Notes: a model not told the origin generated them from the letters alone. A stretch of DNA of 64,000 nt from an uncultured Candidatus Saccharibacteria bacterium (GCA_964387675.1 CAYLWL010000001.1:74819-138818); one strand, 5' to 3'; shown: positions 1,964 to 59,668, numbered from the stretch's first letter. Translations and numbers: made by a program.

Positions 1964-2317
1964 TTGATGAAGTTTTTGGCGAAAATCGTAGTCGCGATTC
2001 TTGCGAACGCAATCGCGCTCGTGGCGGCCGCTACCTATATTTCCGGATTCAACCTGGACGGCGATTTCAAAAAAATCGTCGGGATTGCGATTATACTCAC
2101 CGTTCTCAATTTTGTTCTGAAGCCGATTTTGAAGCTCGTCTTCGGTCCTGTTATCGTGCTTACGCTGGGCCTGGGAATCATACTGGTGAACGCATTGGTT
2201 CTTTATGTTCTTGACATTATCGCAAAAAACCTTACCATTGAAACAATTCCCGCCCTCTTCTACGCCACGATTTTAGTGGGCGTCGTGAACTTCGTGTTCC
2301 ATCTGGCAACAAAGTAG
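1964..2317 (+). CDS. DUF360 / phage-holin-4-like small membrane protein
   Basis: 117 aa with 3-4 hydrophobic helices, YvlD/DUF360-like pattern. Its TAG stop at 2315-2317 lies inside the terminal inverted repeat of a family-1 element. Confidence 0.5.
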   Translation: MMKFLAKIVVAILANAIALVAAATYISGFNLDGDFKKIVGIAIILTVLNFVLKPILKLVFGPVIVLTLGLGIILVNALVLYVLDIIAKNLTIETIPALFYATILVGVVNFVFHLATK

Positions 2318-2410
2318 TAATCGCGAATAATGCTAATTGATTAAAAATAACGCGAATTATTAGATTATTAGCGTTATTTGCTGGCATTCGCGTTATTAGC
2401 GAACACTCCC
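2313..2410. repeat. Family-1 palindromic MITE-like element, copy 1 (AATAACGCGAAT / ATTCGCGTTATT sub-repeats; TIR ~GGAGTARTCGCGAATAAC)
   Basis: Seen in sequence. Shares terminal inverted repeats and internal motifs with copies at 5561-5677, 21429-21518 and 59576-59668. Sits between the DUF360 stop and the secG start. Confidence 0.7.
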
Positions 2411-2707: not shown

Positions 2708-4357
2708 ATGACAAAGATAAGAAAAATCTTTTTTGCGCTTACTGGGCGGGAGCGGGTGGTATTTTTATCCGCGGCGGCTTTGGCGATTGTGAGCGGCATA
2801 ATCCTTACCGGCTTGGGCTTCGCCCAAAACACGAGAGTCGTCCCGGCCTCGGGCGGAGAATACACGGAGGGCTTCCTCGAACAGCCGATCTATATAAACC
2901 CCGTCATCGCCTCTCTTGTTGTCGACAAAAGCATCGTGAAGCTTGTCTTTGAGAACATCCGCGGCATCGCCGAGAAAATAGAAACGTCGCCCGACGGCAG
3001 AATCTGGAATATCAGAATAAAAGAAAACTTGGAGTGGCACGACGGCGAAAGATTGACCACCGACGACGTCGTATTCACCATCCAAAAAATCCAGGACCCG
3101 GAAAGCTCGTCGCCGCTCGAAAAAATATGGCGCGGAGTGTCGGTGAAAAGGGTGAGTGGCCTTGAACTCCAATTGAGCTTGGTGAACGCGGACCCCTTCT
3201 TTCGGGAAACGCTCAACACTCTTTACGTCCTGCCGAAGCATCTCTTCTCGGAAATACCTCCGGCAAACTGGCGGCTTTCCGATTACAACCTGAAACCTGT
3301 CGGCGCCGGCCCCTACAAGTTTTCCTCTTACGAGAAGAAGCCCGACGGATTCATCGGCCTCTACCGGCTGGAGCAGTGGAACGACTACCCGGGAGAAAAA
3401 CCGCTGATCGGCAACTTCACCCTCAAGTTCTTCTCCGATCTTCAGGGTGTCATTGGAGATTTCAATTCCGGCCAGATCGACGGCATAGCCGGGCTTGAAC
3501 CCGATGCCGTGAGCCAAATAAAAAGACCTCACGAAACCTTCTCTTTTTATCTTCCGAGCTACTACGCGGTCTTTTTGAACCAAAGCAAGAGCATACCGCT
3601 CAAGGACTTGTCGGTGAGAAGGGCTCTTAGCGCGTCGGTTGGCAGGGCAGGCCTCGTCGAGAGCGCCCTCGGCGGACGAGGCAAACCGGCCCTTGGGCCG
3701 ATTCCCGCGGAGACGCCGTATTTTGACGAAAGCATATCCTCGTCAACGGAATCCATCGAATCGCTTGGAGACGCGCTCGACAGAGCCGGCTGGAAAATGA
3801 ACGACCAGGGGGTCCGGGAAAAAACGATAAAAAATACGAAGCTCCCGCTCGAACTGAATCTTACCGTCCCGCAGATAACATTCCTTACGAAAACCGCTGA
3901 AGTCCTTGCAAAAACATGGCAGCCGCTTGGTTTCAAAATCAACATCAACACGCCGGGGCTCGAAGAGATCGCAAAGAACACCATCACGAACCGGGACTAC
4001 GAAATGCTCGTCTTCGGCAATGTCCTCAATAAAAATCTCGACCTTTTTTCTTTCTGGCATTCTTCGGGCAGATTCAATCCCGGCCTGAATCTTGCGCTCT
4101 ACAACAATAAAAAGGCGGATGCCTTGATCGAGTCCATTCGGCTCGACTCAAACGAAGAAAGCCGCGCGAAGAAGCTCCGCGACCTCCAGACAATAATCAC
4201 GAGCGACTATCCGGCGGTATTCCTTTATTCGCCGGAATACACCTATATCACGACCAAAAACCTTCAGGGAGTTTCGGCGGGTCTCGTTGCCGACCCGTCC
4301 GACCGTTTTGTTGACGCGAAACAGTGGTATGTGAAAACGGCGCGAGTTCTAAAATAG
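2708..4357 (+). CDS. ABC transporter substrate-binding protein, family 5 (peptide/nickel type)
   Basis: 549 aa with an N-terminal TM/signal and a length and motif pattern typical of SBP_bac_5. Confidence 0.5.
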   Translation: MTKIRKIFFALTGRERVVFLSAAALAIVSGIILTGLGFAQNTRVVPASGGEYTEGFLEQPIYINPVIASLVVDKSIVKLVFENIRGIAEKIETSPDGRIWNIRIKENLEWHDGERLTTDDVVFTIQKIQDPESSSPLEKIWRGVSVKRVSGLELQLSLVNADPFFRETLNTLYVLPKHLFSEIPPANWRLSDYNLKPVGAGPYKFSSYEKKPDGFIGLYRLEQWNDYPGEKPLIGNFTLKFFSDLQGVIGDFNSGQIDGIAGLEPDAVSQIKRPHETFSFYLPSYYAVFLNQSKSIPLKDLSVRRALSASVGRAGLVESALGGRGKPALGPIPAETPYFDESISSSTESIESLGDALDRAGWKMNDQGVREKTIKNTKLPLELNLTVPQITFLTKTAEVLAKTWQPLGFKININTPGLEEIAKNTITNRDYEMLVFGNVLNKNLDLFSFWHSSGRFNPGLNLALYNNKKADALIESIRLDSNEESRAKKLRDLQTIITSDYPAVFLYSPEYTYITTKNLQGVSAGLVADPSDRFVDAKQWYVKTARVLK

Positions 4358-4475
4358 TATCTAGAATTTAGAACCTAGTATCCAGGATTTAGCGGCCTGG
4401 TGCGCTTGCGGTTTTTTTAATATTGGTTTAACCTATATTCTAGATTCTAGTTACTAAATTCTAGATTCTGATCAA

Positions 4476-4745
4476 ATGCCTATCATCCAATCGGCCAAAA
4501 AGGCCCTGCGGCAAAACATAAAAAGGCGGGAAAGAAACCTGGCGAAGAAGGAGGTATATAAAAAAGCGGTGAAAACGTTTCGAAAACTCGTTACCGATAA
4601 GAAAACGGAAGAGGCCAAAAAACAGTTAGGGGTTGCGTACAAAGCGCTCGATAAAGCCGCGAAAACCGGCGTCATCAAGAAGAACAAGGCAAGCAGGTTG
4701 AAATCGAGATTATCGAGGATCCTGCGAAAGAGTCAGGTCCAGTAA
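4476..4745 (+). CDS. rpsT: 30S ribosomal protein S20
   Basis: 'MPIIQSAKKALRQNIKRRERN...' is a basic 89-aa S20-like sequence. Confidence 0.8.
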   Translation: MPIIQSAKKALRQNIKRRERNLAKKEVYKKAVKTFRKLVTDKKTEEAKKQLGVAYKALDKAAKTGVIKKNKASRLKSRLSRILRKSQVQ

Positions 4746-5555
4746 GGACTCCTCGTATTCCATTCTTCCCGATTTCACCATCGCGTCATACTCCGCCATC
4801 CGCGAAACTTTTTCGCGCTCGCGGCGAGCATCGCCGGACCGCCACTGCGACGCCAGAATATTGAAGACCTTCGCTCCCGGCTCGTTCTGCGCGAAGAGTT
4901 TCGCAAGCGACGAGAGCCGATACGCGACATTCGAACTTCGGAGACCGCTCATCACCGCCCAATAATCGGGCAGTACTTCAATGCTCATCGCTTCGAGATC
5001 GGACTTTGTAATTTTGCTCTTGCCAAAGTTGCTCAATTTTTCAAGCTCCGTGATCAATCCCCAAGTGTTATTTTGATAGACCAAAGCAAGAACACCGAGG
5101 GCCGACGTGTCGACTTCGACGCCAAGCCGCCCTGCTTCTTTCTCAATATACGCGTTCCACTCCGACCCCGTAAGATAATCAAAACTCTGCGAAACGACTG
5201 CCTGCGGTGAGCCGCGTCGAACCGGCCTCGACAATAAAAAGCCGGCCCTTTTTGTCGGTTTGTCTTTCTCTGAAAGAAGGATGGTTGTTTTTTTGTCGTT
5301 CATGGCCGCCTCGAGCTCTTTTGCCAATCCCGATTCGGAACCTCCCCCGAAGACCCCTTCTACGACCGCGAGTTTCATCGCTCCGAAAACCGACTGGGCG
5401 CGCATAAATTCTTTCAGATCGGCGAGCGCGTCTTTTTCTTGGAGGTCAAAAAAACCCACGCCGAGATTGGAGCGTTTTTTTTTGAACTCCGCAATGATCG
5501 ATTTCTTTTTTTGTTCCCGCCGATACTCATCGGGGCCGTAGAGAAAGATAATCAT
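4710..5555 (-). CDS. holA: DNA polymerase III delta subunit-like
   Basis: N-terminus 'MIIFLYGPDEYRREQ' and ~280 aa length match HolA-like proteins. The call rests on N-terminal motif and length only. Confidence 0.45.
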   Translation of the reverse strand: MIIFLYGPDEYRREQKKKSIIAEFKKKRSNLGVGFFDLQEKDALADLKEFMRAQSVFGAMKLAVVEGVFGGGSESGLAKELEAAMNDKKTTILLSEKDKPTKRAGFLLSRPVRRGSPQAVVSQSFDYLTGSEWNAYIEKEAGRLGVEVDTSALGVLALVYQNNTWGLITELEKLSNFGKSKITKSDLEAMSIEVLPDYWAVMSGLRSSNVAYRLSSLAKLFAQNEPGAKVFNILASQWRSGDARREREKVSRMAEYDAMVKSGRMEYEESLLDLTLSQDPR

Positions 5556-5560: not shown

Positions 5561-5677
5561 GGAGTATTCGCGAATAACTCGAATCTTTAAATTAATAATG
5601 CGAATCATTAGGGTTGTTTAAGTCCGTGTATTCGCGTTATTGGCGGTTCGTTCATTCGCGTTATTCGCGACTACTCC
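5561..5677. repeat. Family-1 palindromic MITE-like element, copy 2
   Basis: TIRs 'GGAGTATTCGCGAATAAC' and 'GTTATTCGCGACTACTCC'. Its right TIR contains the TAG stop (complement) of the histidine kinase gene. Its left end abuts the holA-like start codon. Confidence 0.7.
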
Positions 5678-6999
5678 ATTGCCACTTCGTGTTTCGGCAC
5701 AAGATTTGGATCCGTGGGCAACGTAAAGTGAAACGCGCTTCCCCTGCCAAGCTCCGACTCCGCCCAAACTCGCCCGCCATGGGCCTGGATGATATTTTTC
5801 GCGATGTAGAGCCCAAGACCGGATCCTTCGGTCTGGGATTTCAAAACATTCTCGGCGCGAAAGAACTTTGTGAAGAGCTTCTCGATATCTTCTTTGGGGA
5901 TGCCAAGCCCCGTGTCGCTCACGGCGATCTCGACGTACGGCCCATCGCTTCGTTGTTCTACTTTCACAACAACCTCTCCGTTTTCAACGTTATAGCGTAC
6001 GGCATTTTCCAAAATATTAACGAGGGCGATAGAGAGCTTCTTCGGATCAATGAGGATTTTTGGCAGGGGAGATTTCGGCCGGTCGAAATACACTTTTATG
6101 CCGCTCTTTCTCGCAAGGGCGGCCACTTGCGCCAACGGCGCGCTCACAAAATCGATGATGTCGGCTTCCTCGAACGCGTATCCAAAACGTCCCTCCTCGA
6201 CCCTGGCGATATCAAGAAGGTCCTCGACGATTCTTTTGAGCTGACGGGCCGAAACAAGGGCGCTCTCCACGATGGTCTTATTCGTATCACCGAACGACTG
6301 GTCTCCCGCCAAAGATTCGATCGCCCAGTTGAGTTCCGTGATCGGAGTGCGAAGCTGGTGTGACGCAATCGTAAGAAACTCTGTTTTTGACTTCATTAAC
6401 GACTCCTCCCGTGTTCTGTTTTTGATGATTTTCATAAAACCGATCTGGGCGCCAGAACTATCGGCAACGATGGAGGTGGAGACCCTGAGTTCCAAAATCG
6501 GGTCCGAGAAAGACAAGTCAACCACTTGGGGATATTGTCCGGGCGTGGAACGATTAATGACCGACGGGGCAAGAGACGGAAAAATCACTTGAGCCAGCAA
6601 TTTGAACGAAGGATCTTCCACGCCTTTGGGCTCCAGACGGCGGCCGGAAACGCTTCCCCTCTCCAGGTGAAAGAGTTTTTCCGCCGCCGGATTAAAAAGA
6701 AGAATCTGGAAGTTGTTATCGTAGACCACGAGCGCGTCCTCCAGGTTCAAAAAAACGCTTTTGAGTTCGTTTTTCTCTATTTTCGTTCCCCGTTCGATCT
6801 TTGCCGCCCGGTAAGCGCCAAAAAAAACCAAAATTCCAAGAACCACAATCAAGCCCGCCTGAACGAAAAACACCCCTCTTGGTGAAGAAATATACGAACT
6901 CGCAAGCAGAGCGACGAGGAAGGCGGCAACAAGCCAAGCGATCCTCAATTCCGGCCACAATATTATTTCTCGTATTTTTCCCACATCCATACTTTTCAT
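5671..6999 (-). CDS. sensor histidine kinase (TM - PAS - HisKA - HATPase_c)
   Basis: H-box 'HQLRTPITELNWAIESL' and ATPase motifs 'GLGLYIAKNIIQAHGGRVWAE'. Start placed at 'MKSMDVGK...' (TM follows); the longer track ORF would overlap the upstream gene by >100 nt. Confidence 0.75.
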   Translation of the reverse strand: MKSMDVGKIREIILWPELRIAWLVAAFLVALLASSYISSPRGVFFVQAGLIVVLGILVFFGAYRAAKIERGTKIEKNELKSVFLNLEDALVVYDNNFQILLFNPAAEKLFHLERGSVSGRRLEPKGVEDPSFKLLAQVIFPSLAPSVINRSTPGQYPQVVDLSFSDPILELRVSTSIVADSSGAQIGFMKIIKNRTREESLMKSKTEFLTIASHQLRTPITELNWAIESLAGDQSFGDTNKTIVESALVSARQLKRIVEDLLDIARVEEGRFGYAFEEADIIDFVSAPLAQVAALARKSGIKVYFDRPKSPLPKILIDPKKLSIALVNILENAVRYNVENGEVVVKVEQRSDGPYVEIAVSDTGLGIPKEDIEKLFTKFFRAENVLKSQTEGSGLGLYIAKNIIQAHGGRVWAESELGRGSAFHFTLPTDPNLVPKHEVAME

Positions 7000-7012
7000 C
7001 GTATCATGAATT

Positions 7013-7942
7013 CTATAAAATCCTCTGATCTCTTTTTCTGGGCTTTTGCGCGACACGGGCGCTACCCTCAGTCCCTTCTTGCGCCGCCTCGGCTCTCGCG
7101 GCAAGGGTCTTAAATCCCAATTTTTCAAAATAGTTCTTTATTTCGGGAAAATTGTCTTTGGCCTCCAATTCTTCAAGATCGCGGATGGCGACGGGAACGT
7201 CCCTTTTTAAGGTGACCAGGTCTTTCGAGCGAAGCGCTTCTTTTTGAAAGGGTCCTAGTTTCAATTCGATTCTCGGATATTCTTTTAGTTTTTCATACGC
7301 CTCCTCGACGCTCCCGAACTTCTTGAGTATCTCTGCGGCTGTTTTCGGTCCGATGCCGGGAACTCCCTTGATATTGTCGGACGGGTCGCCGACGAGCGCT
7401 TTGTAGTCGATGATCTGGCTGGGGTTTAGGCCATAACGCTCCCGAACCGCGTTGTCGTCGTATGTAACGGTGTCCGTGATCCCCTTTTTGAACGCACGGA
7501 CGACGACGCGCTCTCCGTCCACGAGCTGGAGCGTGTCCATGTCTCCGGTCAAAATGACCACCCTGATATCGTCATCGCGCTTGAACTTCTCCGCGAGCGT
7601 GGCGATCAGATCATCCGCTTCAAATCCCGGCTTTTCGAATGTCTTGATGCCGAACGCCTCAAAGAGGCGATGCGCTTCGATGATCTGAGAAATAAGCTCG
7701 CTCGGAGCGGGCGGACGCTGGGCTTTATATTCTTCGAACTTTTCTTTTCTAAATGTCGGCTCCGGCCTATCGAAAAGCGCCGCCGCGTAGTCCGGTTTTT
7801 CTTCACGCCGCAACTTTAGCAGGATGCTCGCCAGGCCATAGATCGCCTGTACCGGTTTTCCGTCGGGACTCGTGAGCGGCGGCAGAGCATGGAACGATCG
7901 GTGGATTATAGAATTGGCATCGACGAGGAACAACGTTTTCAT
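7013..7942 (-). CDS. 5'-3' exonuclease (stand-alone PolI N-terminal / FEN-like domain)
   Basis: 'MKTLFLVDANSIIHRSFHALP' and a helix-hairpin-helix region. 309 aa with no polymerase domain. Confidence 0.8.
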   Translation of the reverse strand: MKTLFLVDANSIIHRSFHALPPLTSPDGKPVQAIYGLASILLKLRREEKPDYAAALFDRPEPTFRKEKFEEYKAQRPPAPSELISQIIEAHRLFEAFGIKTFEKPGFEADDLIATLAEKFKRDDDIRVVILTGDMDTLQLVDGERVVVRAFKKGITDTVTYDDNAVRERYGLNPSQIIDYKALVGDPSDNIKGVPGIGPKTAAEILKKFGSVEEAYEKLKEYPRIELKLGPFQKEALRSKDLVTLKRDVPVAIRDLEELEAKDNFPEIKNYFEKLGFKTLAARAEAAQEGTEGSARVAQKPRKRDQRIL

Positions 7943-12925: not shown

Positions 12926-12968
12926 TAAAATACTAGATTCTAGATTCTAGATTCTATATTCTTAATAT

Positions 12969-13556
12969 ATGTCCGGGCACTCCCATTGGGCGGGAATCAA
13001 GCATAAAAAAGGCGTTGCGGACCAAAAACGCGGGGTGGCTTTTTCAAAACTCTTGGCGGCAATTTCTGCCACCGCAAAGTCCGAATCAAATCCGGACTTT
13101 AATCCGCGCCTCCGGACCGCCATCGAGAAAGCAAAGGAACAAAGCGTCCCTGCAGAAAACATCGAACGGGCCGTGAAGCGCGCCTCCGACTCGGCCGACG
13201 ACCTCGAAGAGCTGACTTTTGAATGCTACGGGCCGGGAGGAGTTGCAATCATCGTGGAAGCAATCAGCGACAGCAGAAACAGAACGGTGGCGGAGATTAA
13301 AAAGGTGTTGAGCGACTTTGGCGGAAAGTGGGCGGAGTCCGGAAGCGTCCGCTGGGCCTTCAATCGGGGCGCGGATGAACGCGGACGAGACGCGGACCCG
13401 CTTCGCCGAAACTTCAGCGAGGCGAGTCAACGCGGAACATGGAGGCCAAAGTTTACGCAAGAGATCGGCGAAGAGGAAAAAAACAAACTAAAAGAACTCA
13501 TCGGGGCGCTCGAAGAACACGACGACGTTCAAAAAGTTTATACCAATGCGAGATAA
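12969..13556 (+). CDS. yebC: YebC/PmpR family DNA-binding regulator
   Basis: 'MSGHSHWAGIKHKKG' and C-terminal 'DDVQKVYTN'. At 195 aa it is shorter than typical, so an internal deletion is possible. Confidence 0.75.
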   Translation: MSGHSHWAGIKHKKGVADQKRGVAFSKLLAAISATAKSESNPDFNPRLRTAIEKAKEQSVPAENIERAVKRASDSADDLEELTFECYGPGGVAIIVEAISDSRNRTVAEIKKVLSDFGGKWAESGSVRWAFNRGADERGRDADPLRRNFSEASQRGTWRPKFTQEIGEEEKNKLKELIGALEEHDDVQKVYTNAR

Positions 13557-13595
13557 GTCGTATTCTACTTTCTACATTCTACTTTCTACATTCTC

Positions 13596-14087
13596 ATGGT
13601 CATCCTAGGTATCGACCCCGGCACAAGAAGAATCGGATACGGGGTTATCAAAAAGTCATCCGCGGAACTCAAATTGCTTGACGCCGGACTGCTCGCCATA
13701 AAAAGCAAAGACGACTTCGGCGCGATGAAAGAAATGAAACAACAGATCGATGCGGTCATAAAAAAGTTCAAGCCGGAAGCGCTCTCTATCGAAAAGGTAT
13801 ATTTTGTGAAAAATCGGAAAACGGGCATAAAAGTCGCCGAGGCGCGGGGGATCATAATTTCTTGCGCCCTCACCCTGGGTCTGCGGGTAGAAGAATACGG
13901 CCCAAACGAGGTGAAAGCGGCTCTTACCGGCTATGGCTTTGCCGACAAGAAAGCCGTGCTTAAAATGGTGCGAATTATCCTCAAAGAACCGGGTCTCAAG
14001 GTTATCGACGACGCAAGCGACGCCCTGGCGCTCGCCATTGTTGCTGGGTATAAGTATGGGGTTGACAGCCGAGCAACTCACCTATAA
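13596..14087 (+). CDS. ruvC: crossover junction endodeoxyribonuclease RuvC
   Basis: 'ILGIDPGTRRIGYGVI' RNase-H-fold resolvase. Confidence 0.85.
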   Translation: MVILGIDPGTRRIGYGVIKKSSAELKLLDAGLLAIKSKDDFGAMKEMKQQIDAVIKKFKPEALSIEKVYFVKNRKTGIKVAEARGIIISCALTLGLRVEEYGPNEVKAALTGYGFADKKAVLKMVRIILKEPGLKVIDDASDALALAIVAGYKYGVDSRATHL

Positions 14088-19719: not shown

Positions 19720-19854
19720 ATGTCGGTTACCTATCAACCGAAGAAAAAGAAGAGAAAAAGGGCGCACGGCTTCCTCGCGAGGCAAAGAAGGTCGTCGGGA
19801 CGCAATGTGCTCAAAAGAAGGCGCGCCAAAGGACGACGCCGGCTTACTGTCTAA
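19720..19854 (+). CDS. rpmH: 50S ribosomal protein L34
   Basis: 44-aa ORF '[44 protein letters not shown]'. It is absent from the ORF track because it is under 60 aa. Classic position between dnaA and rnpA. Confidence 0.8.
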
Positions 19855-19925
19855 TTTGTGGCTTTTAGGTTATAGGTTTTAGGATATGAAAACTGACACC
19901 TCATAGCTGAAACCGAGCACCTCGT

Positions 19926-20297: not shown

Positions 20298-21035
20298 ATG
20301 TTGTATCTCTACGACACGCTTCTCTATAATCCCCTTCTCAACGTCCTGATTTTCTTTTATAACACGATCGCGTTTGGAGATTTCGGTTTGGCGATAATAT
20401 TTTTCACAATTTTCGTGAGAATTATCCTCTTCCCGCTTTTCCAAAAGAGCGCCAGACATCAGATTGTGATGCAGCGGCTTCAGCCGGAATTGAAAAAAAT
20501 ACAAGAGAAGCATCGGAACAATCGTGAACACCAGGGCATAGAAATGATGGCGCTCTACAAAGAGAAGGGCATCAATCCGTTTTCCGGTTTTCTGTTTTTA
20601 CTGGTGCAGCTGCCGATTTTGATCGCGCTCTACCAAATTTTTTTAAACAGCCAAAGCAAAGATTTTTTGTCGGGACTGTACGGTTTTATGTTCCGCCCGG
20701 ACCACATCAACACATCGTTCGTGGGCTTGATTAATTTGGGGGGACAAAGTATTCTGATGGTGGGCCTTGCGGCTTTAGCCCAGTATTTCCAAGGGATTTT
20801 GACCCTCCCGAAGGCGGAAAAACACCGCGAGCCGACGCCGGCGGAGAAAATAAACCGCCAGATGATCATCGTGGCTCCGTTCATTACCCTTCTTATTTTT
20901 TACAATCTGCCGGCGGCCGTGAGTTTGTACTGGCTTATCGCGACCATTTTCTCCGCCGCTCAGCAGTTTATGATCAACAAACAAAACAAACGCGAACATG
21001 GACAACCCGGAATCATTCGTCAAAAAAATAATTGA
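20298..21035 (+). CDS. yidC: membrane protein insertase YidC (short form)
   Basis: Five-TM Oxa1/YidC core with 'FPLF..S' motifs. Confidence 0.8.
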   Translation: MLYLYDTLLYNPLLNVLIFFYNTIAFGDFGLAIIFFTIFVRIILFPLFQKSARHQIVMQRLQPELKKIQEKHRNNREHQGIEMMALYKEKGINPFSGFLFLLVQLPILIALYQIFLNSQSKDFLSGLYGFMFRPDHINTSFVGLINLGGQSILMVGLAALAQYFQGILTLPKAEKHREPTPAEKINRQMIIVAPFITLLIFYNLPAAVSLYWLIATIFSAAQQFMINKQNKREHGQPGIIRQKNN

Positions 21036-21441
21036 ATATATGGGCTTCAAGGATTATCGCCTGGAAATTAAACCGGAGCAGAAGAGAGGAGCAGTTTTTA
21101 TTTATGACAACCCGACTTTGGTGAAAGAAAATTTGCCGACTCTTGTGGACAGCTTGAATCACGTCGTGCAAATGGCGGTGAGAAAAAACGGCGAACAGGC
21201 GATTCTTTTCGACATCAATAATTACCGGCAAGAAAGAGAAAGCTTAATTACCGAACTCGCGAGGGCGGCGGCGAAAAAGGTCTTAATGACCAAAGAGAAA
21301 ATTTCTCTCCCGGCGATGAACTCTTACGAAAGAAGGTTGGTCCACATCGAGCTTTCGGTGCACCCGGAAGTTACGACCGAAAGCGCGGGAATGGGCAGGG
21401 AGAGATGCGTGATCATAAGGCCAATCGAGAGTAATCGCTAA
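20998..21441 (+). CDS. jag: Jag/SpoIIIJ-associated KH-R3H RNA-binding protein
   Basis: R3H motif 'SYERRLVHIELS'. Follows yidC as in rpmH-rnpA-yidC-jag clusters. Its stop lies inside a family-1 element. Confidence 0.7.
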   Translation: MDNPESFVKKIIEYMGFKDYRLEIKPEQKRGAVFIYDNPTLVKENLPTLVDSLNHVVQMAVRKNGEQAILFDINNYRQERESLITELARAAAKKVLMTKEKISLPAMNSYERRLVHIELSVHPEVTTESAGMGRERCVIIRPIESNR

Positions 21442-21518
21442 TCACGCGAATGGCGGCAAATAACGCTAATATGATTCGCGTTATTACCTAGCGATTAGCG
21501 TTATTCGTGATTACTCCC
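21429..21518. repeat. Family-1 palindromic MITE-like element, copy 3
   Basis: TIRs 'GAGTAATCGC...GTGATTACTCCC'. Supplies the TAA stop codons of both convergent genes (jag and 21501..22739). Confidence 0.7.
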
Positions 21519-22739
21519 AAGCGACACAGCGTAGACCTTGCTGTCCAACCTATTGACAAAGAATAAGTTTTGGCCAAACACCTTCAGGTTTGAGGCGTCG
21601 AAAAGTTGGCTCTCGTCGTTGAAGATAGGCATTATATTTCCTTGAGAAAGATCAATTTTGTAGAGATCGTCGGCGGTGAAAAGCGCTTTCTTGGAATAGT
21701 CATCGGGCAAGCGGGCTTTCGAGAACGCGTTCGCATCGCGCGGTACGGCGCAGTAGAGAACATCCGAAGAACCGGAAGCATTCGGTGAACTTGAGCTCGC
21801 GGCATCCGAGGTTTGCGGCATGGTTTGTTCCCTTCCGAACGCACATTTACTTGGCAGGGTGGCAAGACGGAGCCGTTTCACGACATTGCCGAGGGCATCG
21901 ATCAAACTCAATATGCCGCCGTGCCCGCTTCGTGCCGCGGAAAAAACCAAGCCGACGTTGGTAGATGTCTCGTTCCAAAAGGATTGGAGTCCCAGACCCT
22001 CAGATACCAAAGTTAATTTGCCCGACGCAGTGTCATACATCCACATGGCGCCCGTCACGGCGGCGCTGCTTTTCTCGACAAGGAGAATGTGGCTTTGTCT
22101 TACCCAGTTCAAACTGACGTCTTGAACGCGAAGTTTCGCGAGCTCTTGCGGTTTTGTCGTGGTCTTTGAGACGTTAAGCACCAACAATGACTTGTAATCG
22201 GCGCCCTCTTTGAAATACGCTATCTGATGGCTCGTAGGAGACCAAACAGCGGATTCTGCGCCGAGCGGGAGCGGTTGCCAGGACTTGGAGGCCACGTCGA
22301 AGACGCTTGCTTGCGGCGCCGACGGGTCGCCGAAAGAGGCCAATACTTTTTTTCCGTCATAAGAAAACTCCGCGGAAATAAGCCCGGCGATAACCGACGA
22401 ACTCAAAACGACCGGTTCGCCTTTCGTGACTTTTACGACTTGGCCATCGGGCTGTACGATAATGACGTTGTTTTCTCGATCGACGAAGAAATCGGCCGCG
22501 GGGTTTTGGGCTACAAGACCGAATGTGCCGGAAGCGGATGGCAGACCGGCTTGTTGCGGAGTTTGGGAGCCGGTCGGGGAGGCGGGATTTTGTTGGATAT
22601 TCTGATTTTGGGCGCCGGGCAGGGTTCCGCTCGTTGTTCCCGACGGCGCCGCGCCGGGCCGGTAGCGCAAATAATATCCTACGAGAACCACAAGGACAAT
22701 CGCGGCGATGATGATGAATAAATAAAGGAAACGACTCAT
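21501..22739 (-). CDS. membrane-anchored hypothetical protein (N-terminal TM, Pro/Gln-rich linker, possible beta-propeller)
   Basis: 412 aa; the domain assignment is inferred and weak. First gene of the T4SS-like block. Confidence 0.4.
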   Translation of the reverse strand: MSRFLYLFIIIAAIVLVVLVGYYLRYRPGAAPSGTTSGTLPGAQNQNIQQNPASPTGSQTPQQAGLPSASGTFGLVAQNPAADFFVDRENNVIIVQPDGQVVKVTKGEPVVLSSSVIAGLISAEFSYDGKKVLASFGDPSAPQASVFDVASKSWQPLPLGAESAVWSPTSHQIAYFKEGADYKSLLVLNVSKTTTKPQELAKLRVQDVSLNWVRQSHILLVEKSSAAVTGAMWMYDTASGKLTLVSEGLGLQSFWNETSTNVGLVFSAARSGHGGILSLIDALGNVVKRLRLATLPSKCAFGREQTMPQTSDAASSSSPNASGSSDVLYCAVPRDANAFSKARLPDDYSKKALFTADDLYKIDLSQGNIMPIFNDESQLFDASNLKVFGQNLFFVNRLDSKVYAVSLGSNHE

Positions 22740-24662: not shown

Positions 24663-26402
24663 TTACCCGCTCTCCTCGAGTAGTTGCTGGGGATTCGTGG
24701 TAATCACTTTATCCTCGAAAAAAGAAGATACGATCTGGATCGCCACGTGTTTCTTGCCCGCGAAAAAGAGTCCGGTTCCGACCTCCGACCCCAGGAGAAA
24801 GTTTTTTTCGGCGTTCGTGAGGTCGAACGCTTTCGCCACGACATCAATCGTCGCCGGCGCCTGTTTCAATAAGAGCTGGAGCGAGGAATTGGTGATAATG
24901 GGCCGGCCGTAGGGAGAGCGCAAGAAGTCCTCAACGTCCTGGGTGATGGTCGAAACGCCGAGATAATACTTTCTCGCTCTTTTCACGAGGCCGAACAGGA
25001 ACGTGGCGCTGTCTTCGTTTTTCATCATCCACCACGCCTCGTCGATGATCAAAAGACGCCGTTTGAGTTCGGCTCGAATCAGGTTCCAGATAAAGTTCAA
25101 AATCACAAACATCGCGATCGGCCGCAGTTCTTCTTCAAGGTCGCGGATCGAGAAAATGATCAATCGGTTCGTGATGTCGATATTCGTTCTTTGGTTCAAA
25201 AATCCCGAAAAGCTCCCTTTCGTGAATTTATAGAGCCGTTCGGCCATCGTCCTCCCTCCTTCGATACTTCGCAGCACGGTTTCCAGGTCTTCGAGGAGCG
25301 GCGGCTCGGCTTGCGAAAAATCCTGATCGGCTACGATTTCTCTCGAAGCGTACGTTTCCGTGATCGCCCTGTCGAGGAGCGCGTCTTCTTCGGCCGTGAC
25401 TTTGCCTAACATTAACTTCACCAAACTCGCGAGGTTTACGATGTGCGAGCGGAGGACGTCCGATGGCGATTCGTCTTTCGGCACGATGGGAATGTCGAAC
25501 GGATTGATGTGCTCGTGGGACGAGAGAGAAATGTTGAAAACGCTTCCGCCCAGGGCCTCCGCCAGCTTGCGGTATTCGTTTTCCGGATCGATGACGATTA
25601 CGTTTTCCACGCCGATCATGAGCGATCGCATGATTTCGAGTTTGGTGGCATAGGACTTTCCCGATCCCGATTTCGCGAAGACGACTTGATTCGCGTTTTC
25701 CAGAGAAAACCGGTTGAATATGACCAAACTGTTGTTGTGAAGGTTCACGCCATAGAGAATTCCTTCATTCGACGAAAGGTCTTCGGATACGAAAGGAAAA
25801 AGGGAAGATATAGGTTGTGAATTCATAGGATTCCACACTTGGAGCTGGTCGTCGCCCAAAGGAAGGATCGAGCAAAACCCCTCCAATTGTTCGAAAAGCG
25901 CCGGCCTCGCGTAAATCAACTTTGATTCCGTGATTGATGTTAGTTTTCCTTCGAGGCGGGATAACTCCTCTTCGCTATCCGCGTAAATCGTGATATACAC
26001 GCCGAGGTTGAACAGTTTTTCTTCCGATTGCTGGAGCGTGTCGCGCAGTGTCTCCACGTCGCGGAGCGCCGTCTCGAGCATGGGATCTCTTACGAGTCCT
26101 TTATCCTGATTTTCCATAATTTGGGATTCCAGCTGGGCGGACTTTTTGCGCAGGTTCTTGAGAGCGGTGCCGGTGTCCACGGGATTCACGAAAATCGATA
26201 CGTCGAAAAGGTTGGGCAGATTGATCAGCTGTTCGGCCCATCCCGTCGAGAGGTAGCGGGGGTACGAGAACAAAAAGAAACTCTTGGCGAGTTTATCGCC
26301 GATTTTGAGATGAGAGGGGAGTACTTGGATTCCTGACGGAGCGATAATTTTTACTATCCCTTCGAAGCCGTTTTCTTTTTTTTCTTTTTCCTGCTCGGCC
26401 AT
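24663..26402 (-). CDS. VirB4/TrbE/CagE-family conjugative ATPase, C-terminal ATPase part
   Basis: Walker A 'KSGSGKS' and Walker B 'LLIIDEAWWMM'. Confidence 0.65.
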   Translation of the reverse strand: MAEQEKEKKENGFEGIVKIIAPSGIQVLPSHLKIGDKLAKSFFLFSYPRYLSTGWAEQLINLPNLFDVSIFVNPVDTGTALKNLRKKSAQLESQIMENQDKGLVRDPMLETALRDVETLRDTLQQSEEKLFNLGVYITIYADSEEELSRLEGKLTSITESKLIYARPALFEQLEGFCSILPLGDDQLQVWNPMNSQPISSLFPFVSEDLSSNEGILYGVNLHNNSLVIFNRFSLENANQVVFAKSGSGKSYATKLEIMRSLMIGVENVIVIDPENEYRKLAEALGGSVFNISLSSHEHINPFDIPIVPKDESPSDVLRSHIVNLASLVKLMLGKVTAEEDALLDRAITETYASREIVADQDFSQAEPPLLEDLETVLRSIEGGRTMAERLYKFTKGSFSGFLNQRTNIDITNRLIIFSIRDLEEELRPIAMFVILNFIWNLIRAELKRRLLIIDEAWWMMKNEDSATFLFGLVKRARKYYLGVSTITQDVEDFLRSPYGRPIITNSSLQLLLKQAPATIDVVAKAFDLTNAEKNFLLGSEVGTGLFFAGKKHVAIQIVSSFFEDKVITTNPQQLLEESG

Positions 26403-26413
26403 TTTAATTTTTT

Positions 26414-26443
26414 AGCTTTTAGCTTTTAGGTGTTAGCTTTTAG
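26414..26443. repeat. AGCTTTTAG iteron-like 30-bp repeat R1
   Basis: 'AGCTTTTAGCTTTTAGGTGTTAGCTTTTAG'. Near-identical copy at 27121-27150 and an inverted copy at 27584-27613. Confidence 0.7.
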
Positions 26444-26451
26444 CACTAAAA

Positions 26452-27114
26452 CTAGCGTTCCGGCAAAACAACTTTTTCTTTTTCGACCGTTCCCGGGTTG
26501 TAAAAGTTATAAAAAAGCTCGATCAGCTGTTCGTCGTTCAAGACGGTCGCTTCGAGGCCGATGACCAGAAGATTCTCCATCACCTGCCGCACCCGCTGTT
26601 TCAACTGCTCCAGGTTTTCTTCGAACGTGGCTTGCGTTTCTTTCTTCGCGCGCTCTTCCGCCGCCTTATTCTTTTTCTTCAAAAAAGGCAGGAGGCCTTC
26701 TATGCCGGTCGCGCTCGCGAGGACATTCGGAAAGAAAGGCACCACCAAAAAAAAGGATTTTTCCATAATGGGATTCTTCTCGATGAAGCCGGAAACGAAT
26801 TCGCGGTACTCTTCGGCCTGGTTCTGCAAAATAGGAGAGGTTTCTCTTTGCTGGAATTCTCGGAGCCCTTCCAGGTATTTGTCGATGTTGATCTTCCTCG
26901 AGTGGATGAGTATTTGCAGGGGGAAATCCAAGCTATTCAGAAGGTTCTGATACGCTTGCAGAACAATGTTTTGCTCCGTTTCCGATTTGAGGGCGAAATT
27001 AATGCCGCCCACCATGACTACTTGGCGCAAACTGCCATTTTTGAGGATAACCGTGCTGTCTTTGATATCCTTGATGGCGACGAGATCTTGGCTGTTGGCA
27101 AATTCTTTGGGCAT
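26452..27114 (-). CDS. VirB4-family N-terminal domain protein (split VirB4)
   Basis: N-terminus '...LVAIKDIKDSTVILKNGSLRQVVMVGGINFALKSETEQ...' resembles the VirB4/PrgJ N-terminal domain. The 49-bp gap to the C-terminal part contains repeat R1. Confidence 0.5.
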   Translation of the reverse strand: MPKEFANSQDLVAIKDIKDSTVILKNGSLRQVVMVGGINFALKSETEQNIVLQAYQNLLNSLDFPLQILIHSRKINIDKYLEGLREFQQRETSPILQNQAEEYREFVSGFIEKNPIMEKSFFLVVPFFPNVLASATGIEGLLPFLKKKNKAAEERAKKETQATFEENLEQLKQRVRQVMENLLVIGLEATVLNDEQLIELFYNFYNPGTVEKEKVVLPER

Positions 27115-27120: not shown

Positions 27121-27150
27121 AGCTTTTAGCTTTTAGGTGTGAGCTTTTAG
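27121..27150. repeat. AGCTTTTAG iteron-like repeat R2
   Basis: 'AGCTTTTAGCTTTTAGGTGTGAGCTTTTAG'. Confidence 0.7.
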
Positions 27151-27159
27151 TCCTTATAA

Positions 27160-27531
27160 TTATAACCCACCTTTAAGCTTCGTGCTTAGTTTTGTTATCA
27201 TGACGCTAAGCATTTTTTGAACTTCCTCTAAAAGAGAAACAACAGAGACGAAATCTAGGGTTGGATATAGTTTTTGAGAAATAATTACTTGGGTTTCCAA
27301 TTCCGCCGAAGACGCGTCTGCGATTCTTAGGAATTGTAAGTATTCCGGAAGGTCTTTTCTTCTCGATCCTTCGGCTATGTTTGACGGAATTGAAATTGCC
27401 GATCGTCTCATTTGAGAAATAAGGCCATATAATTCTTCTCGGGGGAATTGTTTGGTTAATTCGTATATTTTTTCAACCAAGCCAATCGATTTTTTCCAGA
27501 CTTCTAGGTCTTTGTACGATTTTATATACAT
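27160..27531 (-). CDS. four-helix-bundle protein (23S rRNA intervening-sequence / Avd-like family)
   Basis: '...KQFPREELYGLISQMRRSAISIPSNIAEGSRR...' matches the TIGR02436/PF05635 pattern. The gene is bracketed by R2 and the inverted R3. Confidence 0.65.
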   Translation of the reverse strand: MYIKSYKDLEVWKKSIGLVEKIYELTKQFPREELYGLISQMRRSAISIPSNIAEGSRRKDLPEYLQFLRIADASSAELETQVIISQKLYPTLDFVSVVSLLEEVQKMLSVMITKLSTKLKGGL

Positions 27532-27583
27532 TAAAAGCAGCTTTCAGCTGTTAGATGTTAGCTTTTAGTTTTTGTAATCGTAC

Positions 27584-27613
27584 CTAAAAGCTAAAAGCTA
27601 AAACCTAAAAGCT
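27584..27613. repeat. AGCTTTTAG iteron-like repeat R3 (inverted)
   Basis: Reverse complement is 'AGCTTTTAGGTTTTAGCTTTTAGCTTTTAG'. A partial direct copy lies at 27548-27573. Confidence 0.7.
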
Positions 27614-28853: not shown

Positions 28854-30035
28854 TCAAGGTTGTACTGGCGGCGTTGGCGGTTTCGGGGGAAGTGGCGGTT
28901 TTGGTAGTATAGGTGGTTTAATCTCGCTGATTATCGGCGAGAGTGTTTTATGCTCATCAAGACCTCGAATGGCAGGTGCCGCTGGTGGTTTCGGGATGGT
29001 CGGAGACGTAAGCGGTTTCGGAACCGGAGGCAGAGAGGATGGCGTTTTGACTTCGCTTGTTGGGAGCTTGTCTTGGGCGGTTTCGAGGGGCTTGTTCGCC
29101 TGGGGTGTGGCTGGTCTGATTGCGGCGAGCTGTTTGAGAATATCGGATCCGCCAAGGGACGGCTTCGACGACTCAATAGCCGTGATTTCTTTTATTTCGC
29201 GCCCTGGCTTGCCCTCTGTAGCCTTAGCGAAGGAGGGGGCCGCGCCGGAAGGTTTATCCTGAGCCGCGCCGAAGGGCGTTTTGGACTCCGTGTAGTGCAC
29301 CACCCGCACCTGCTCCTTGTTACTTGTCACTTGTTGCCTGTTACTCGTCGAGGGTCCGAATTCAAGCACGGCCGGTTTCGTTGCTTCGGTTTTAAGTTTT
29401 ATTTCCGACAGTTTCGGCTGTGGCATTTCCAGTCGGAATTCTTTTTTGAGAGGAGCGGAAACCGGTTCTTCGTGAAGAATCATCGGCGGCGGTGTGCCGG
29501 GGCTTGGGACCGCCGGTTTGCCGGGCGGTACCGGAGAAATTGACGGAGTTAGTGGAGCGGGGGGCTTCTCGGCGCGGTTTATCACAGGCGGCATCGAAGG
29601 GCTTGGCGCAAACGGTTCGGCGGTTTTCGCCGCCGGAAGAAGCGGCGGTTTTATTTCCGTGACTGGTTTTAGCGGTTCGGTTTTACTTATCATAACGGGA
29701 GCGAAGGCGGACGGCGGCTCGTATATTTTTTCCAAGTCAGCCAAGAGCGGCTTAAAAACTCTTTCGTTTACGGCGTTGGCGATGGATGTCGCGATTTGAA
29801 TGTCCAAGCCGAGCGCGTCTTTTAATTCTTGCGCGAAGTCTCCCGCGTGGATAAAGCCCAAGAGCACATAGCCGGCAATTGCCGCGACGCGATAAATCTT
29901 TTCTTTTGGTACGTGCTCCGCTTCGCAGGTTCGCCAGAGGAAATCAGAATGTACGTCGGAATAGAGAGCCTCCTTTAATTTACTTGGTAGCGTGTCCCAC
30001 CGCGCCAACGCTTGATCTGGAGAAATCGTTATCAT
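28854..30035 (-). CDS. Pro-rich hypothetical protein (structured N-terminal domain plus long P/S/T/K-rich disordered region)
   Basis: 393 aa. Contains an in-frame GTGACA-family repeat coding 'QVTSNKEQ'. Confidence 0.4.
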   Translation of the reverse strand: MITISPDQALARWDTLPSKLKEALYSDVHSDFLWRTCEAEHVPKEKIYRVAAIAGYVLLGFIHAGDFAQELKDALGLDIQIATSIANAVNERVFKPLLADLEKIYEPPSAFAPVMISKTEPLKPVTEIKPPLLPAAKTAEPFAPSPSMPPVINRAEKPPAPLTPSISPVPPGKPAVPSPGTPPPMILHEEPVSAPLKKEFRLEMPQPKLSEIKLKTEATKPAVLEFGPSTSNRQQVTSNKEQVRVVHYTESKTPFGAAQDKPSGAAPSFAKATEGKPGREIKEITAIESSKPSLGGSDILKQLAAIRPATPQANKPLETAQDKLPTSEVKTPSSLPPVPKPLTSPTIPKPPAAPAIRGLDEHKTLSPIISEIKPPILPKPPLPPKPPTPPVQP

Positions 30036-34344: not shown

Positions 34345-35196
34345 TCATGAGGCCATGGCGCGGGCTATCCGAACTATATCTTCTACGCTCAAGTTCTGTG
34401 GTCTGCTTTTGGGGTCTACGCCCATTTTTATTAGGGTTTCGGCGATGCTTTCTTTGCTTTCTGGCTTACCGGTGGTTTTGCGGCTTCGGTCTTGACACCT
34501 GATACTTGACACCTGACACATATTATTGAGAATCGTTTTCCTCGGCTGGGCAAAAAGAATTTTCACGGTTTTATAGTAAAGTTGCTCCCTGACGCCTGAC
34601 ACATGACACTTGACGCTTAGTTTGACGATCGCCGAATCGACTTCCGGCTGTGGGTCGAAATCTTTTCTTGGGATGAGGCCGATCAATTGCGGGTCTGCCC
34701 AAAATTGGACGATCGCGGCCAAACGATTCATTCGCGGGGGCGCGGCGCAAATTCTTTCCGCGACTTCTTTCTGGATAGTGAAGACGCACAACTCTGGCTT
34801 CGTTGACAATTCGCTCAATATTCTCAAAAGTTTTCCGGTAATGTAGTAGGGAATATTGCCGACAATCTTATATTCAGATTTAAGATTTATGAATTTTGAT
34901 TTAAGAATGCTTAAGGCGTCACCGTTTAGAATTTCTATATCTTTAATTCCTAAATCATAAATCCTACTTCTTAAATCATTCGCAAGCTTTGGATCTTTTT
35001 CAATCGCAATAACTTTTATCGGCGGCGAGCCGTTTTTTTCTAAAAGCTCACAGCTAAAACCTAAAAGCTCTTCAGTCAGCTCTCCGTGCCCCGGGCCGAT
35101 CTCGACGATGGTGTCGCCGGGTTTCAATTCCACGGCACCGACGATTTTTCGAATCGCCGATCTATTTTGCAAGAAATGTTGGCCCAGCCGCTTCAT
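34345..35196 (-). CDS. rsmA: 16S rRNA (adenine1518/1519-N6)-dimethyltransferase RsmA/KsgA
   Basis: 'LGQHFLQNRSAIRKIV...IVEIGPGHGELT'. The C-terminal region carries two in-frame TGACAC-repeat insertions coding Cys/Gln/Val/Ser-rich peptides. Confidence 0.8.
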   Translation of the reverse strand: MKRLGQHFLQNRSAIRKIVGAVELKPGDTIVEIGPGHGELTEELLGFSCELLEKNGSPPIKVIAIEKDPKLANDLRSRIYDLGIKDIEILNGDALSILKSKFINLKSEYKIVGNIPYYITGKLLRILSELSTKPELCVFTIQKEVAERICAAPPRMNRLAAIVQFWADPQLIGLIPRKDFDPQPEVDSAIVKLSVKCHVSGVREQLYYKTVKILFAQPRKTILNNMCQVSSIRCQDRSRKTTGKPESKESIAETLIKMGVDPKSRPQNLSVEDIVRIARAMAS

Positions 35197-37143: not shown

Positions 37144-37162
37144 GTGACAAGCAACAAGTAAC

Positions 37163-43384: not shown

Positions 43385-43448
43385 GTAATCACTAAATTAC
43401 GAATCTAAAACGAATTACGAATTCGTAATTCGTTGCTCAATTCGTAAT
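43385..43448. promoter_or_regulatory. palindromic operator-like array in the nusA leader (AATTACGAAT units)
   Basis: A perfect 22-bp palindrome 'CGAATTACGAATTCGTAATTCG' with additional half-sites on either side. Confidence 0.45.
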
Positions 43449-43461
43449 TCGAGAACACTCA

Positions 43462-55476: not shown

Positions 55477-55477
55477 T

Positions 55478-59503: not shown

Positions 59504-59575
59504 TTTGACTCTCCCGTTGGTTTCGGTATATGCTTACGACATCGTTAAAGAGTCACTTATTCCTAAAAAACTCAT
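59504..59575. repeat. DR-R (second copy of the promoter/leader repeat)
   Basis: See DR-L. Confidence 0.6.
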
Positions 59576-59668
59576 GGGAGCAATCGCTAATAACGCGAAT
59601 AAAAGCAAATAACGCAGATAATAATTCGCGTTATTAATTAAAAGATTCGAGTTATTCGCGACTACTCC
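59576..59668. repeat. Family-1 palindromic MITE-like element, copy 4
   Basis: TIRs 'GGGAGCAATCGCTAATAACGCGAAT' and 'GATTCGAGTTATTCGCGACTACTCC'. Confidence 0.7.

Follow-up and report, generated by a model that had tools for sequence, protein, structure and literature searches.

Palindromic repeats at gene junctions of a Candidatus Saccharibacteria genome as probable gene-less derivatives of a GxxExxY nuclease cassette

Four copies of a short palindromic repeat, here called Family-1, are found in a 64,000-nt stretch of DNA from an uncultured Candidatus Saccharibacteria bacterium (GCA_964387675.1 CAYLWL010000001.1:74819-138818; hereafter the window, with positions counted from its first nucleotide). 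Comparison with loci of other genomes indicates that these copies are probably derivatives, devoid of an open reading frame (ORF), of a cassette that is similar to rRNA intervening sequences (IVS) or to REPINs, and in which a gene encoding a putative nuclease of the GxxExxY family is enclosed by two inverted arms.

The repeats of the window consist exactly of eight arms of approximately 45 nt, set as four inverted pairs, all of them located between protein-coding genes or in the leader of rny. The copies lie where a preliminary description of the window had placed them, and their limits were refined by 0-1 nt, to 2314-2409, 5561-5677, 21428-21517 and 59577-59668 for copies 1-4. Alignment of the eight half-elements, which the same description had proposed as a way to define terminal inverted repeats, yielded a single consensus arm of 43-48 nt, GGAGTA(R)TCGCGAATAACGCGAAT, N6-12, then AATAACGCGAAT; each arm has the form RGAGTAATCGCGAATAAYGCGAAT-N6-12-AATAAYGCGAAT and contains a CGCGAAT-type sub-repeat three times. 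A copy is thus laid out as outer GGAGTA(R)TCGCGAATAACGCGAAT, a spacer of 6-12 nt, inner AATAACGCGAAT, a centre of 3-24 nt, and the reverse complement of the same. The components of the four copies are as follows.

2314..2357, plus strand: copy 1 left arm, GTAGTAATCGCGAATAATGCTAAT-TGATTAAA-AATAACGCGAAT, with a T-rich spacer ('3-prime-type'); E 1.4e-10
2367..2409, minus strand: copy 1 right arm, GGAGTGTTCGCTAATAACGCGAAT-GCCAGCA-AATAACGCTAAT, with a ..GCA spacer ('5-prime-type'); E 2.7e-10
5561..5605, plus strand: copy 2 left arm; E 7e-10
5606..5629, plus strand: copy 2 interior, CATTAGGGTTGTTTAAGTCCGTGT, collinear with the following arm
5630..5677, minus strand: copy 2 right arm, GGAGTAGTCGCGAATAACGCGAAT-GAACGAACCGCC-AATAACGCGAAT; E 1.6e-9
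21428..21470, plus strand: copy 3 left arm; E 8.5e-9
21474..21517, minus strand: copy 3 right arm; E 6.8e-11
59577..59619, plus strand: copy 4 left arm, GGAGCAATCGCTAATAACGCGAAT-AAAAGCA-AATAACGCAGAT ('5-prime-type'); E 2.3e-8
59624..59668, minus strand: copy 4 right arm ('3-prime-type'); E 2.7e-9

The 12-mer AATAACGCGAAT, with up to two mismatches, occurs 24 times in the window versus 10.7 +/- 3.1 expected, a number reached by none of 100 shuffles. Sixteen of these matches fall inside the four elements, always as two forward and two reverse occurrences, 19-24 nt apart. Similarly, an nhmmer profile built only from the arms of other genomes recovered exactly the eight arms of the window (E 7e-11 to 2e-8); the next-best match (E 0.02) lies within copy 1, and every match outside the four elements had an E value of at least 0.5. 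Whichever strand is considered, all four copies are predicted to fold better than their shuffled counterparts (dG -23 to -47 kcal/mol, z -2.7 to -7.0). A search of the whole window against Rfam 15 returned two tRNAs only, with none of the copies reaching the gathering score of a family, and a relaxed search of 2280-2440, around copy 1, gave only a chance match to mir-155 (18.6 bits versus a threshold of 56).

The partner that has the same ends is a small gene cassette. Among the compared loci from other genomes and metagenomes, which are designated by L-numbers, all six inverted pairs with an interior of 380-520 nt (L033, L048, L073, L078, L080, and L105) enclose an ORF of approximately 130 aa belonging to the GxxExxY family (TIGR04256; PF13366, PDDEXK_3). 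This is the sole cargo gene that was found between Family-1 arms, where no transposase was detected; in L209 and others, the product of the partner is likewise a GxxExxY protein of the PD-(D/E)XK type, which is not known to act as a transposase. The full cassette is ordered as host stop, 5' arm, GxxExxY ORF, 3' arm, and next host ATG, and its orientation is usually that of the host operon. Translation signals of the nuclease gene are part of the 5' arm: the Shine-Dalgarno sequence is in its spacer (e.g., AAGGAGGTGATAATG in L124), and the GxxExxY ATG is located in, or just before, the inner 12-mer of this arm. Decayed forms are also present: the L105 gene is a pseudogene with two in-frame stops, and only the last 26 codons of GxxExxY remain between the arms of L117 (E 3e-11), at a site orthologous to that of the intact L033 cassette, just after the same pilB-like gene.

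An intact cassette was also found in GCA_016204365.1, a metagenome-assembled genome (MAG) of Candidatus Liptonbacteria from groundwater, in which SecG and the solute-binding protein (SBP) of the window are present at 100% identity. Its GxxExxY gene (protein P0158; L209, 1501-1893) lies between an aminoacyl-tRNA synthetase (aaRS) gene and a CTP_transf-like gene, a site that is also occupied in another Liptonbacteria species (L206-L208). The arms of this cassette carry the window variants, with AATAACGCGAAT, and its 3' arm, ATTCGCGTTATTTAATTAAAGATTCGAGTTATTCGCGATTACTCC, runs directly into the next ATG. This 3' arm is the best match, among approximately 227 arms from outside the window, of both the copy 2 left arm (score 37/45) and the copy 4 right arm (38/45); these two window arms score 39 against each other, above any non-window arm. 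In addition, the 24-nt centre of copy 2 has its best local match at nt 369-384 of the 393-nt GxxExxY ORF of L209, in a collinear arrangement, and AGGGTTGTT within this interior is invariant across three sequences, which is at most suggestive of a relic of the last codons of the ORF.

The arms are widespread beyond these cassettes. A degenerate arm 23-mer matched at least 115 stretches in species-representative genomes, and the matches listed include approximately 55 assemblies, labelled as Liptonbacteria, Wolfebacteria, Harrisonbacteria, Colwellbacteria, Parcubacteria, Paceibacteria and similar groups, or as unclassified MAGs. Apart from an obvious chance match in a cyanobacterium, those listed belong to the Candidate Phyla Radiation (CPR; Patescibacteria) or to unclassified MAGs. 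The matched loci contained 232 arms, of which 153 were in inverted pairs (mostly of 85-120 nt) and 77 were solo, in addition to tandem arrays (L012, L041, L073, L075) and nested or shortened copies (L047, L030, L086). The unit is a directional arm of approximately 45 nt, which also occurs solo, in tandem or nested. Inverted pairs numbered 75 in the loci from other genomes. The two arms of a pair are systematically different and constitute two distinct types. Compensatory covariation between paired arms was considered and rejected, as the opposite was found: positions 7, 12, and 21 agree within a pair less often than expected by chance (0.39 vs 0.55, 0.22 vs 0.45, and 0.35 vs 0.49, respectively). 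A model that invokes only a selected hairpin is therefore insufficient. The spacers come in conserved flavours, ..GGCA/AGCA, AGAGGT, and T-rich TTGGATTC-like. Separately, a GC-rich, CCTGCCGGCAGGCAGG-like palindrome of approximately 20 nt splits the arm 12-mers in L023 (~6373-6392), L036 (~7720-7740), L110 (~4350-4380), and L014 (~2270-2290), and appears to be a distinct, tiny insertion element of CPR genomes.

The association of GxxExxY genes with flanking arms is not restricted to Family-1. A profile made from the six cassette proteins identified 4167 homologues at E<=1e-10 and was used to retrieve 80 metagenomic GxxExxY loci, 76 of which had enough flanking sequence for a comparison of the 150 nt upstream with the 150 nt downstream of the gene. 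A significant inverted repeat across the gene was present at 56 of these 76 loci, versus 9 of 76 in direct orientation, and sub-repeats with a multiplicity of at least three were found in 28-31 of 76 flanks versus 2 of 76 within genes. The arms are arrays of three or four short sub-repeats that are specific to each family (..ACGAAT, ..ACAAAT, ..ACGGAT, ..CAGAT, ..CTAAT), and arm similarity correlates with protein similarity (rho 0.43, with 0 of 500 permutations as high). As for the protein, residues D74, E84, and K86 are invariant in 45 homologues (D..E.K motif), and the AF2 model (pLDDT 89.9) has the Cas4 protein SSO0001 as its best fold match in the PDB (E 2e-5), followed by lambda-exonuclease and MGME1; no solved relative was detected when the PDB was queried at the sequence level with a GxxExxY profile. 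GxxExxY is thus a predicted PD-(D/E)XK nuclease with a Cas4-like modelled fold. Literature searches with the arm sequence returned chance primer matches only, those on MITEs (miniature inverted-repeat transposable elements) or REPINs in CPR bacteria returned nothing relevant, and none was found on the genomic context of GxxExxY or PDDEXK_3; as their coverage was incomplete, an earlier description may exist.

Orthologous loci, which were obtained from homologous proteins and then from their encoding contigs, revealed that the element is present in some relatives and absent from others. (A scan of metagenome contigs with the SBP protein found no relatives.) The synteny iPGM-holin-secG-SBP is kept in L118, L119, and L121, with SBP identities of 73, 61, and 60%, respectively. 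Where copy 1 stands in the window, the holin|secG spacer of these three loci consists of 10-15 unrelated nucleotides and no arm. Likewise, the leader of rny is conserved as TTAAAGAGTCAC..CCTAAAAAACTCA-[element]-ATGAAGAATTTAGG in the window and in L024, which both carry the element; it can also be written TTAAAGAGTCAC..CCTAAAAAAYTCA-[X]-ATGRAGAATTTAGG, in which X stands for the element (window and L024) or for a 21-nt unrelated stretch (L119). Empty orthologous sites therefore exist for copy 1 (L118, L119, L121) and copy 4 (L119), and because of these empty junctions the repeats are not a fixed regulatory site, the alternative that the preliminary description had named as fatal to a mobile interpretation. 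In these comparisons, the native spacer is replaced by the element and not split by it.

Two other features of these sites were observed. At the kinase|next-gene junction, which is the site of copy 2, L085 (2855-2942) has a palindrome of another sub-repeat family, GAAGCACGAAATCC.. / ATCTGAAATTTGAA.., and the same junctions are reused by different arm families. Before rny, a conserved leader motif, TTAAAGAGTC[AG]C..TTCCTAAAA, is found in three species (window, 59545-59575; L024, ~3670-3705; L119, ~3650-3720), with a second occurrence in the window at ~58845-58880, approximately 700 nt upstream.

The relationship of the arms to the flanking genes is precise. It had been claimed that the terminal GGAGTAG/GGAGTAA of three copies provides the stop codon of the adjacent gene. 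Flanking ORFs do end within the arms of copies 1-3, but in copy 3 not by means of this heptamer. The holin-like ORF (1964-2317) ends at the TAG of 2315-2317, arm positions 2-4 of copy 1; the histidine kinase ORF next to copy 2 (5671-7128, minus strand) ends at the TAG of GGAGTAG, arm positions 5-7. At copy 3, both convergent genes do receive their stops from the arms, though deeper than the heptamer: jag (20998-21441) enters the left arm by 14 nt and stops at the TAA of positions 12-14 (CGC-TAA), and an ORF of 412 aa (21501-22739, minus strand) enters the right arm by 17 nt and stops at the TAA of positions 15-17 (GAA-TAA). Copy 4 supplies no stop codon to any gene. The reported proximity to start codons was borne out, with the secG ATG (2411) 1 nt from the outer end of the copy 1 right arm and the holA start 5 nt from that of the copy 2 left arm; the latter gene (4710-5555, minus strand, start at 5555) was identified by its match to TIGR01128. 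The start of the RNase Y gene (59700) is 31 nt beyond the right arm of copy 4. A sigma-70-like promoter, TTGACT-18-TATGCT (59505..59534, plus strand), is located upstream of this copy, with an equivalent, TTGACC-N18-TATCAT, in L024; copy 4 therefore lies within the 5' untranslated region of rny.

The proposal that the element remodels gene termini was not upheld where relatives without the element allowed a comparison. The holin-like protein has the same C-terminus (..ATK*) in the window and in the element-free L118, with its stop at the same position as in relatives without the element, and the kinase (..AME*) ends where its L085 orthologue (..PIE*) ends. In these two genes, the end of the arm has fused with the final codon and stop codon of the ancestral gene, and the protein is not remodelled.

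In other genomes, an ATG-led ORF begins 0, 1, or 2 nt from the outer (GGAG) end of 20, 38, and 9 arms, respectively, which amounts to 67 of 230 arms. Most ORFs that read toward an arm stop from 7 nt inside to 1 nt before it, and a minority do so at positions 12-17 or deeper. Solo arms are found 3-25 nt upstream of rpsM, rplP, rpsG, tsf, dnaK, nusG, glyA, metG, a tRNA gene, and the 5' end of 16S rRNA, with one copy just upstream of the 16S gene in L008. The element is, in effect, the entire intergenic region. In relatives without it, neighbouring genes are only 0-15 nt apart (0-2 nt at the L085 and L116 junctions), so that only insertions at junctions survive, which largely explains the precise abutment. 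Arms with ..GCA/AGGT-type spacers (A/C-type) abut host stops rather than starts by 71:41, and T-rich (B-type) arms abut host starts rather than stops by 36:29, which is consistent with the 5'-arm/3'-arm layout of the cassette.

These data can be brought together in the following scheme. The complete element would be a small selfish cassette, composed of a nuclease gene between two inverted arms, that resides at gene junctions of CPR bacteria. Loss of the ORF would leave the two arms as an imperfect palindrome of approximately 90 nt, and further loss would leave solo arms. Over evolutionary time, copies would be gained and lost at gene junctions, replacing the short native spacer, and those at junctions would be co-transcribed with the flanking genes. 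By analogy with RAYT and the REP/REPIN repeats, the sub-repeats may be recognised by the cognate GxxExxY nuclease, and the spread or maintenance of the arms would be due to this enzyme. RNase III would cut the transcribed hairpin, as it does in 23S rRNA intervening sequences, and this cutting would make insertions into operons and leaders tolerable; a search limited to the 64-kb window did not find the signature of an RNase III gene. Stops near the arm ends (TAA at 5-7 and 15-17) would end any ORF running into the element.

Several observations weigh against this scheme. Copies 1 and 3 have arms that resemble those from other genomes at least as closely as they resemble the GCA_016204365.1 cassette, and the window, which downstream of secG extends beyond what the contig JACQKV010000018.1 of that assembly allows, may come from another assembly of the same organism. 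The match of the copy 2 centre to the nuclease ORF is no more than suggestive, since 52 of 2000 shuffles score equally anywhere in the ORF (p about 0.03). Neither a target-site duplication nor any other footprint shows how copies arise, and, as the native spacer is replaced and not simply interrupted, the copies could have arisen by recombination or gene conversion and not by transposition. Some sites are old and have been retained: L024, whose rny is 69% identical, shares copy 4, and the nuclease cassette likewise occupies the same aaRS|CTP_transf site in two Liptonbacteria. Both cases are equally compatible with a host function. The bias of arm types toward host gene ends is only moderate, and the nuclease activity, arm binding, and RNA cleavage are predicted.

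The most serious alternative, although an unlikely one, is that the arms are a host cis-regulatory or RNA-processing module kept by selection, with GxxExxY as one of the genes controlled and with gain and loss occurring by recombination between copies. The exact abutment of start codons (0-2 nt), the solo arms upstream of ribosomal and other genes, a tRNA gene, and 16S rRNA, the resemblance of AATAAT to a -10 hexamer, and the sharing of some sites between species all fit such a module, and the conserved mismatches between arms argue for more than a plain hairpin. However, empty orthologous junctions function without the element, and tight abutment is expected anyway where genes normally touch. 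In addition, copy 3 lies between convergent 3' ends and copies 1 and 2 each have one arm running into the 3' end of a gene, which makes no sense for a promoter; copy 4 already has a canonical sigma-70 promoter upstream; and, by inspection, the -35/-10 geometry fits neither orientation. In one, AATAAT is a fair -10 but has no -35 at 16-18 nt, and in the outward orientation no hexamer with -11A and -7T is found at a workable distance from the ATG. Promoter activity was rejected as the main function of the arm, and so was a Shine-Dalgarno role of the terminal GGAG, as its orientation is wrong and the abutting gene sees CTCC. Finally, the pseudogene and the relic between arms resemble the decay of a selfish element. 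A regulatory or processing role may nonetheless be partly true, as an exaptation.

It is less probable still that the GxxExxY gene is a homing-type invader of pre-existing arm doublets, so that gene-less doublets would be sites not yet invaded. The gene is always central in the arm pair, its predicted nuclease fold would suit a homing role, and arm families are specific to protein clades, as this hypothesis would have it. By contrast, arm and gene form a single unit, as the 5' arm contains both the Shine-Dalgarno sequence and the start codon of the nuclease gene; a direction from cassette to doublet is indicated by the pseudogene in L105, the relic in L117, and the possible relic in copy 2; and the spread of the doublets themselves would stay unexplained.

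The classical MITE, i.e., an internally deleted transposon of DDE or similar type that is moved in trans by cut-and-paste and makes target-site duplications, deserves very little credence: the copies are indeed short, non-coding, and multicopy, with inverted ends (four pairs in 64 kb) and empty sites in relatives, but solo arms and tandem arrays exist as well, the element takes the place of the native spacer instead of splitting it, the only cargo between arms is the 130-aa PD-(D/E)XK protein in place of a transposase, and the search for target-site duplications recommended in the preliminary description, conducted on 74 pairs with k=2-8 and offsets from -8 to +3, detected none, with matches close to the shuffled expectation. 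A TA duplication inside GGAG-TA-AT was considered separately and gave no signal, the TA being inseparable from the palindrome itself. Of the original MITE-like reading, what persists is a dispersed, non-coding palindromic family with empty sites and a protein-coding version that has the same arms; what does not is a fixed unit bounded by terminal inverted repeats, along with the target-site duplication, the known transposase, and the equivalence of the two arms.

With the derivation from a GxxExxY cassette as the preferred reading, Family-1 can be compared with known systems. The IVS of the Coxiella burnetii 23S rRNA gene, which has been described as selfish, has an inverted-repeat stem that RNase III cuts; a Shine-Dalgarno sequence and three heptamers in tandem lie ahead of its small, decaying ORF, S23p (PMC4990558). 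In CPR bacteria, 23S_rRNA_IVP ORFs and short ORF-less insertions occur at IVS positions of rRNA genes (PMC11270868). Family-1 shares with the IVS a small ORF, or none, inside an inverted-repeat stem, a 5' side in which a Shine-Dalgarno sequence is followed by tandem repeats of heptamer scale before the ATG, a decay-prone ORF with ORF-less versions, and the sporadic distribution described for these selfish elements; the window itself contains a 23S_rRNA_IVP gene with such arms. The window copies differ in being located at protein-gene junctions or in an mRNA leader, and not in helix 25 or 45 of the 23S rRNA; in the nature of the ORF, a PD-(D/E)XK GxxExxY nuclease instead of the four-helix-bundle S23p; and in the many dispersed ORF-less copies per genome. 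The likeness is one of anatomy, RNase III excision being known for the IVS.

Family-1 also resembles the REP (repetitive extragenic palindromic)/REPIN-RAYT systems. In both cases, one or few protein genes are flanked by inverted short repeats, numerous gene-less doublets that form hairpins are scattered through intergenic sequence, the repeats can be solo, tandem, or paired and have no target-site duplication, and the protein gene is transmitted vertically, related species having it at the same conserved place (L209 vs L206-208). As in these systems, a flanked gene (L209, in the assembly that shares SecG and SBP with the window) is accompanied by doublets, four of them in the window. However, the Family-1 protein matches only PF13366/TIGR04256 and is not a Y1 HUH transposase of the IS200/IS605 type, a single arm is not palindromic and has three direct sub-repeats, and the copies fill whole junctions, abutting start and stop codons.

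The preliminary description had matched the repeats to Correia elements and to Rickettsia palindromic elements (RPEs), which holds only as an analogy. These MITEs and Family-1 are short, palindromic, and multicopy, are located near or inside gene ends, and form co-transcribed hairpins, with nothing defining in common beyond the short palindromic repeat. The 26-bp terminal inverted repeat of Correia elements is not known to be related to the arm end GGAGTAATCGCG, and no sequence relationship is known between Family-1 and either group. Moreover, Family-1 has no TA or other target-site duplication, RPEs are in frame inside ORFs whereas the Family-1 copies are not, and, in contrast to MITEs, the arms are of two types and the associated gene is not a transposase gene. 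Because a defining feature of each was looked for and found lacking, Family-1 is not a member of the MITE, Correia, RPE, REP, or rRNA-IVS families, but a variant form of a known kind of element.

ORF-less arms of at least four further families are present at gene junctions of the window, which brings the number of arm families in these 64 kb to at least five. One of them has its own gene: a 23S_rRNA_IVP/four-helix-bundle protein of 123 aa (PF05635, E 4.5e-34) is encoded at 27160-27531 (minus strand; region 27121-27613) between arms of AGCTTTT-type heptamers, with an upstream doublet that ends 7 nt before its ATG and a single downstream arm that ends 6 nt before the ATG of the next gene. This arrangement is that of a second type of cassette, which shares the anatomy of the GxxExxY one. 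Arms of this type without an ORF occur at the 26400-26453, 35040-35072, and 19853-19892 junctions, one of them directly upstream of the TraG-like start (26402). The TraG-like (P-loop_TraG) and weak TraC-like genes beside the IVP cassette (24663-27114) suggest a type IV secretion or conjugative segment.

The remaining arm families and other features of the window are listed below.

1915-1946, 29308-29346, 34490-34617, 35599-35625, 37137-37252, and 61225-61294: GTGTCAG/TGACACC heptamer palindromes or arms, the last of which fills the junction from the RNase Y stop to the ATG of a Wzy_C-like gene
4356-4469, 12930-12971, and 13562-13603: arms with TCTAGAA/ATTCTAG-type and ATTCTAC-type sub-repeats; the first, a palindrome, fills the SBP|rpsT junction, which in L118 is occupied by a DUF218 gene; of the other two, one immediately precedes yebC and one separates yebC from ruvC
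43400-43462: TACGAAT-type palindrome just upstream of nusA, whose sub-repeat (TACGAATTACGAAT) also flanks GxxExxY genes in the metagenomic L130, L136, and L141
53328-54893, minus strand (region 53297-55034): large serine recombinase gene beside tRNA-Ile(TAT), between perfect 114-nt inverted repeats (53367-53480 / 54921-55034)
55007-56941: second inverted pair, of 176 nt (93% complementary), enclosing GrpB and methyltransferase genes; with the preceding feature (53297-56941), it could be an invertible or integrated segment
10044-10288: gene-free stretch of 245 nt from ruvB to a T2SS-E ATPase gene, with strong predicted structure and no Rfam match even at E<=1

More generally, and with a confidence well below that given to the origin of the four copies, it can be hypothesized that GxxExxY proteins serve as the nucleases of a large and undescribed class, in which each cassette has a small nuclease gene between family-specific inverted arms of tandem sub-repeats. 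As a Cas4-like equivalent of the RAYT-REPIN systems, the nuclease would recognise the sub-repeats and would spread or maintain ORF-less hairpin doublets. Together with the 23S_rRNA_IVP cassettes, this class would be of the same kind as the rRNA IVS; removal of the stem from the RNA would allow it to colonise gene junctions, leaders, and rRNA genes. If this is true, the arms would provide the large, uncharacterised GxxExxY family with a first concrete context and a testable substrate, namely its own flanking arms. It would also link three subjects until now considered apart, namely rRNA intervening sequences, small 'IVS proteins' encoded elsewhere than in rRNA, and the hairpin repeats scattered between genes, and could help to answer the long-standing question of the spread of IVS-type elements. 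In the streamlined genomes of CPR bacteria, much of the scarce intergenic DNA would consist of such elements, which would bear on the annotation of gene ends, on operon models, and on assembly breaks.

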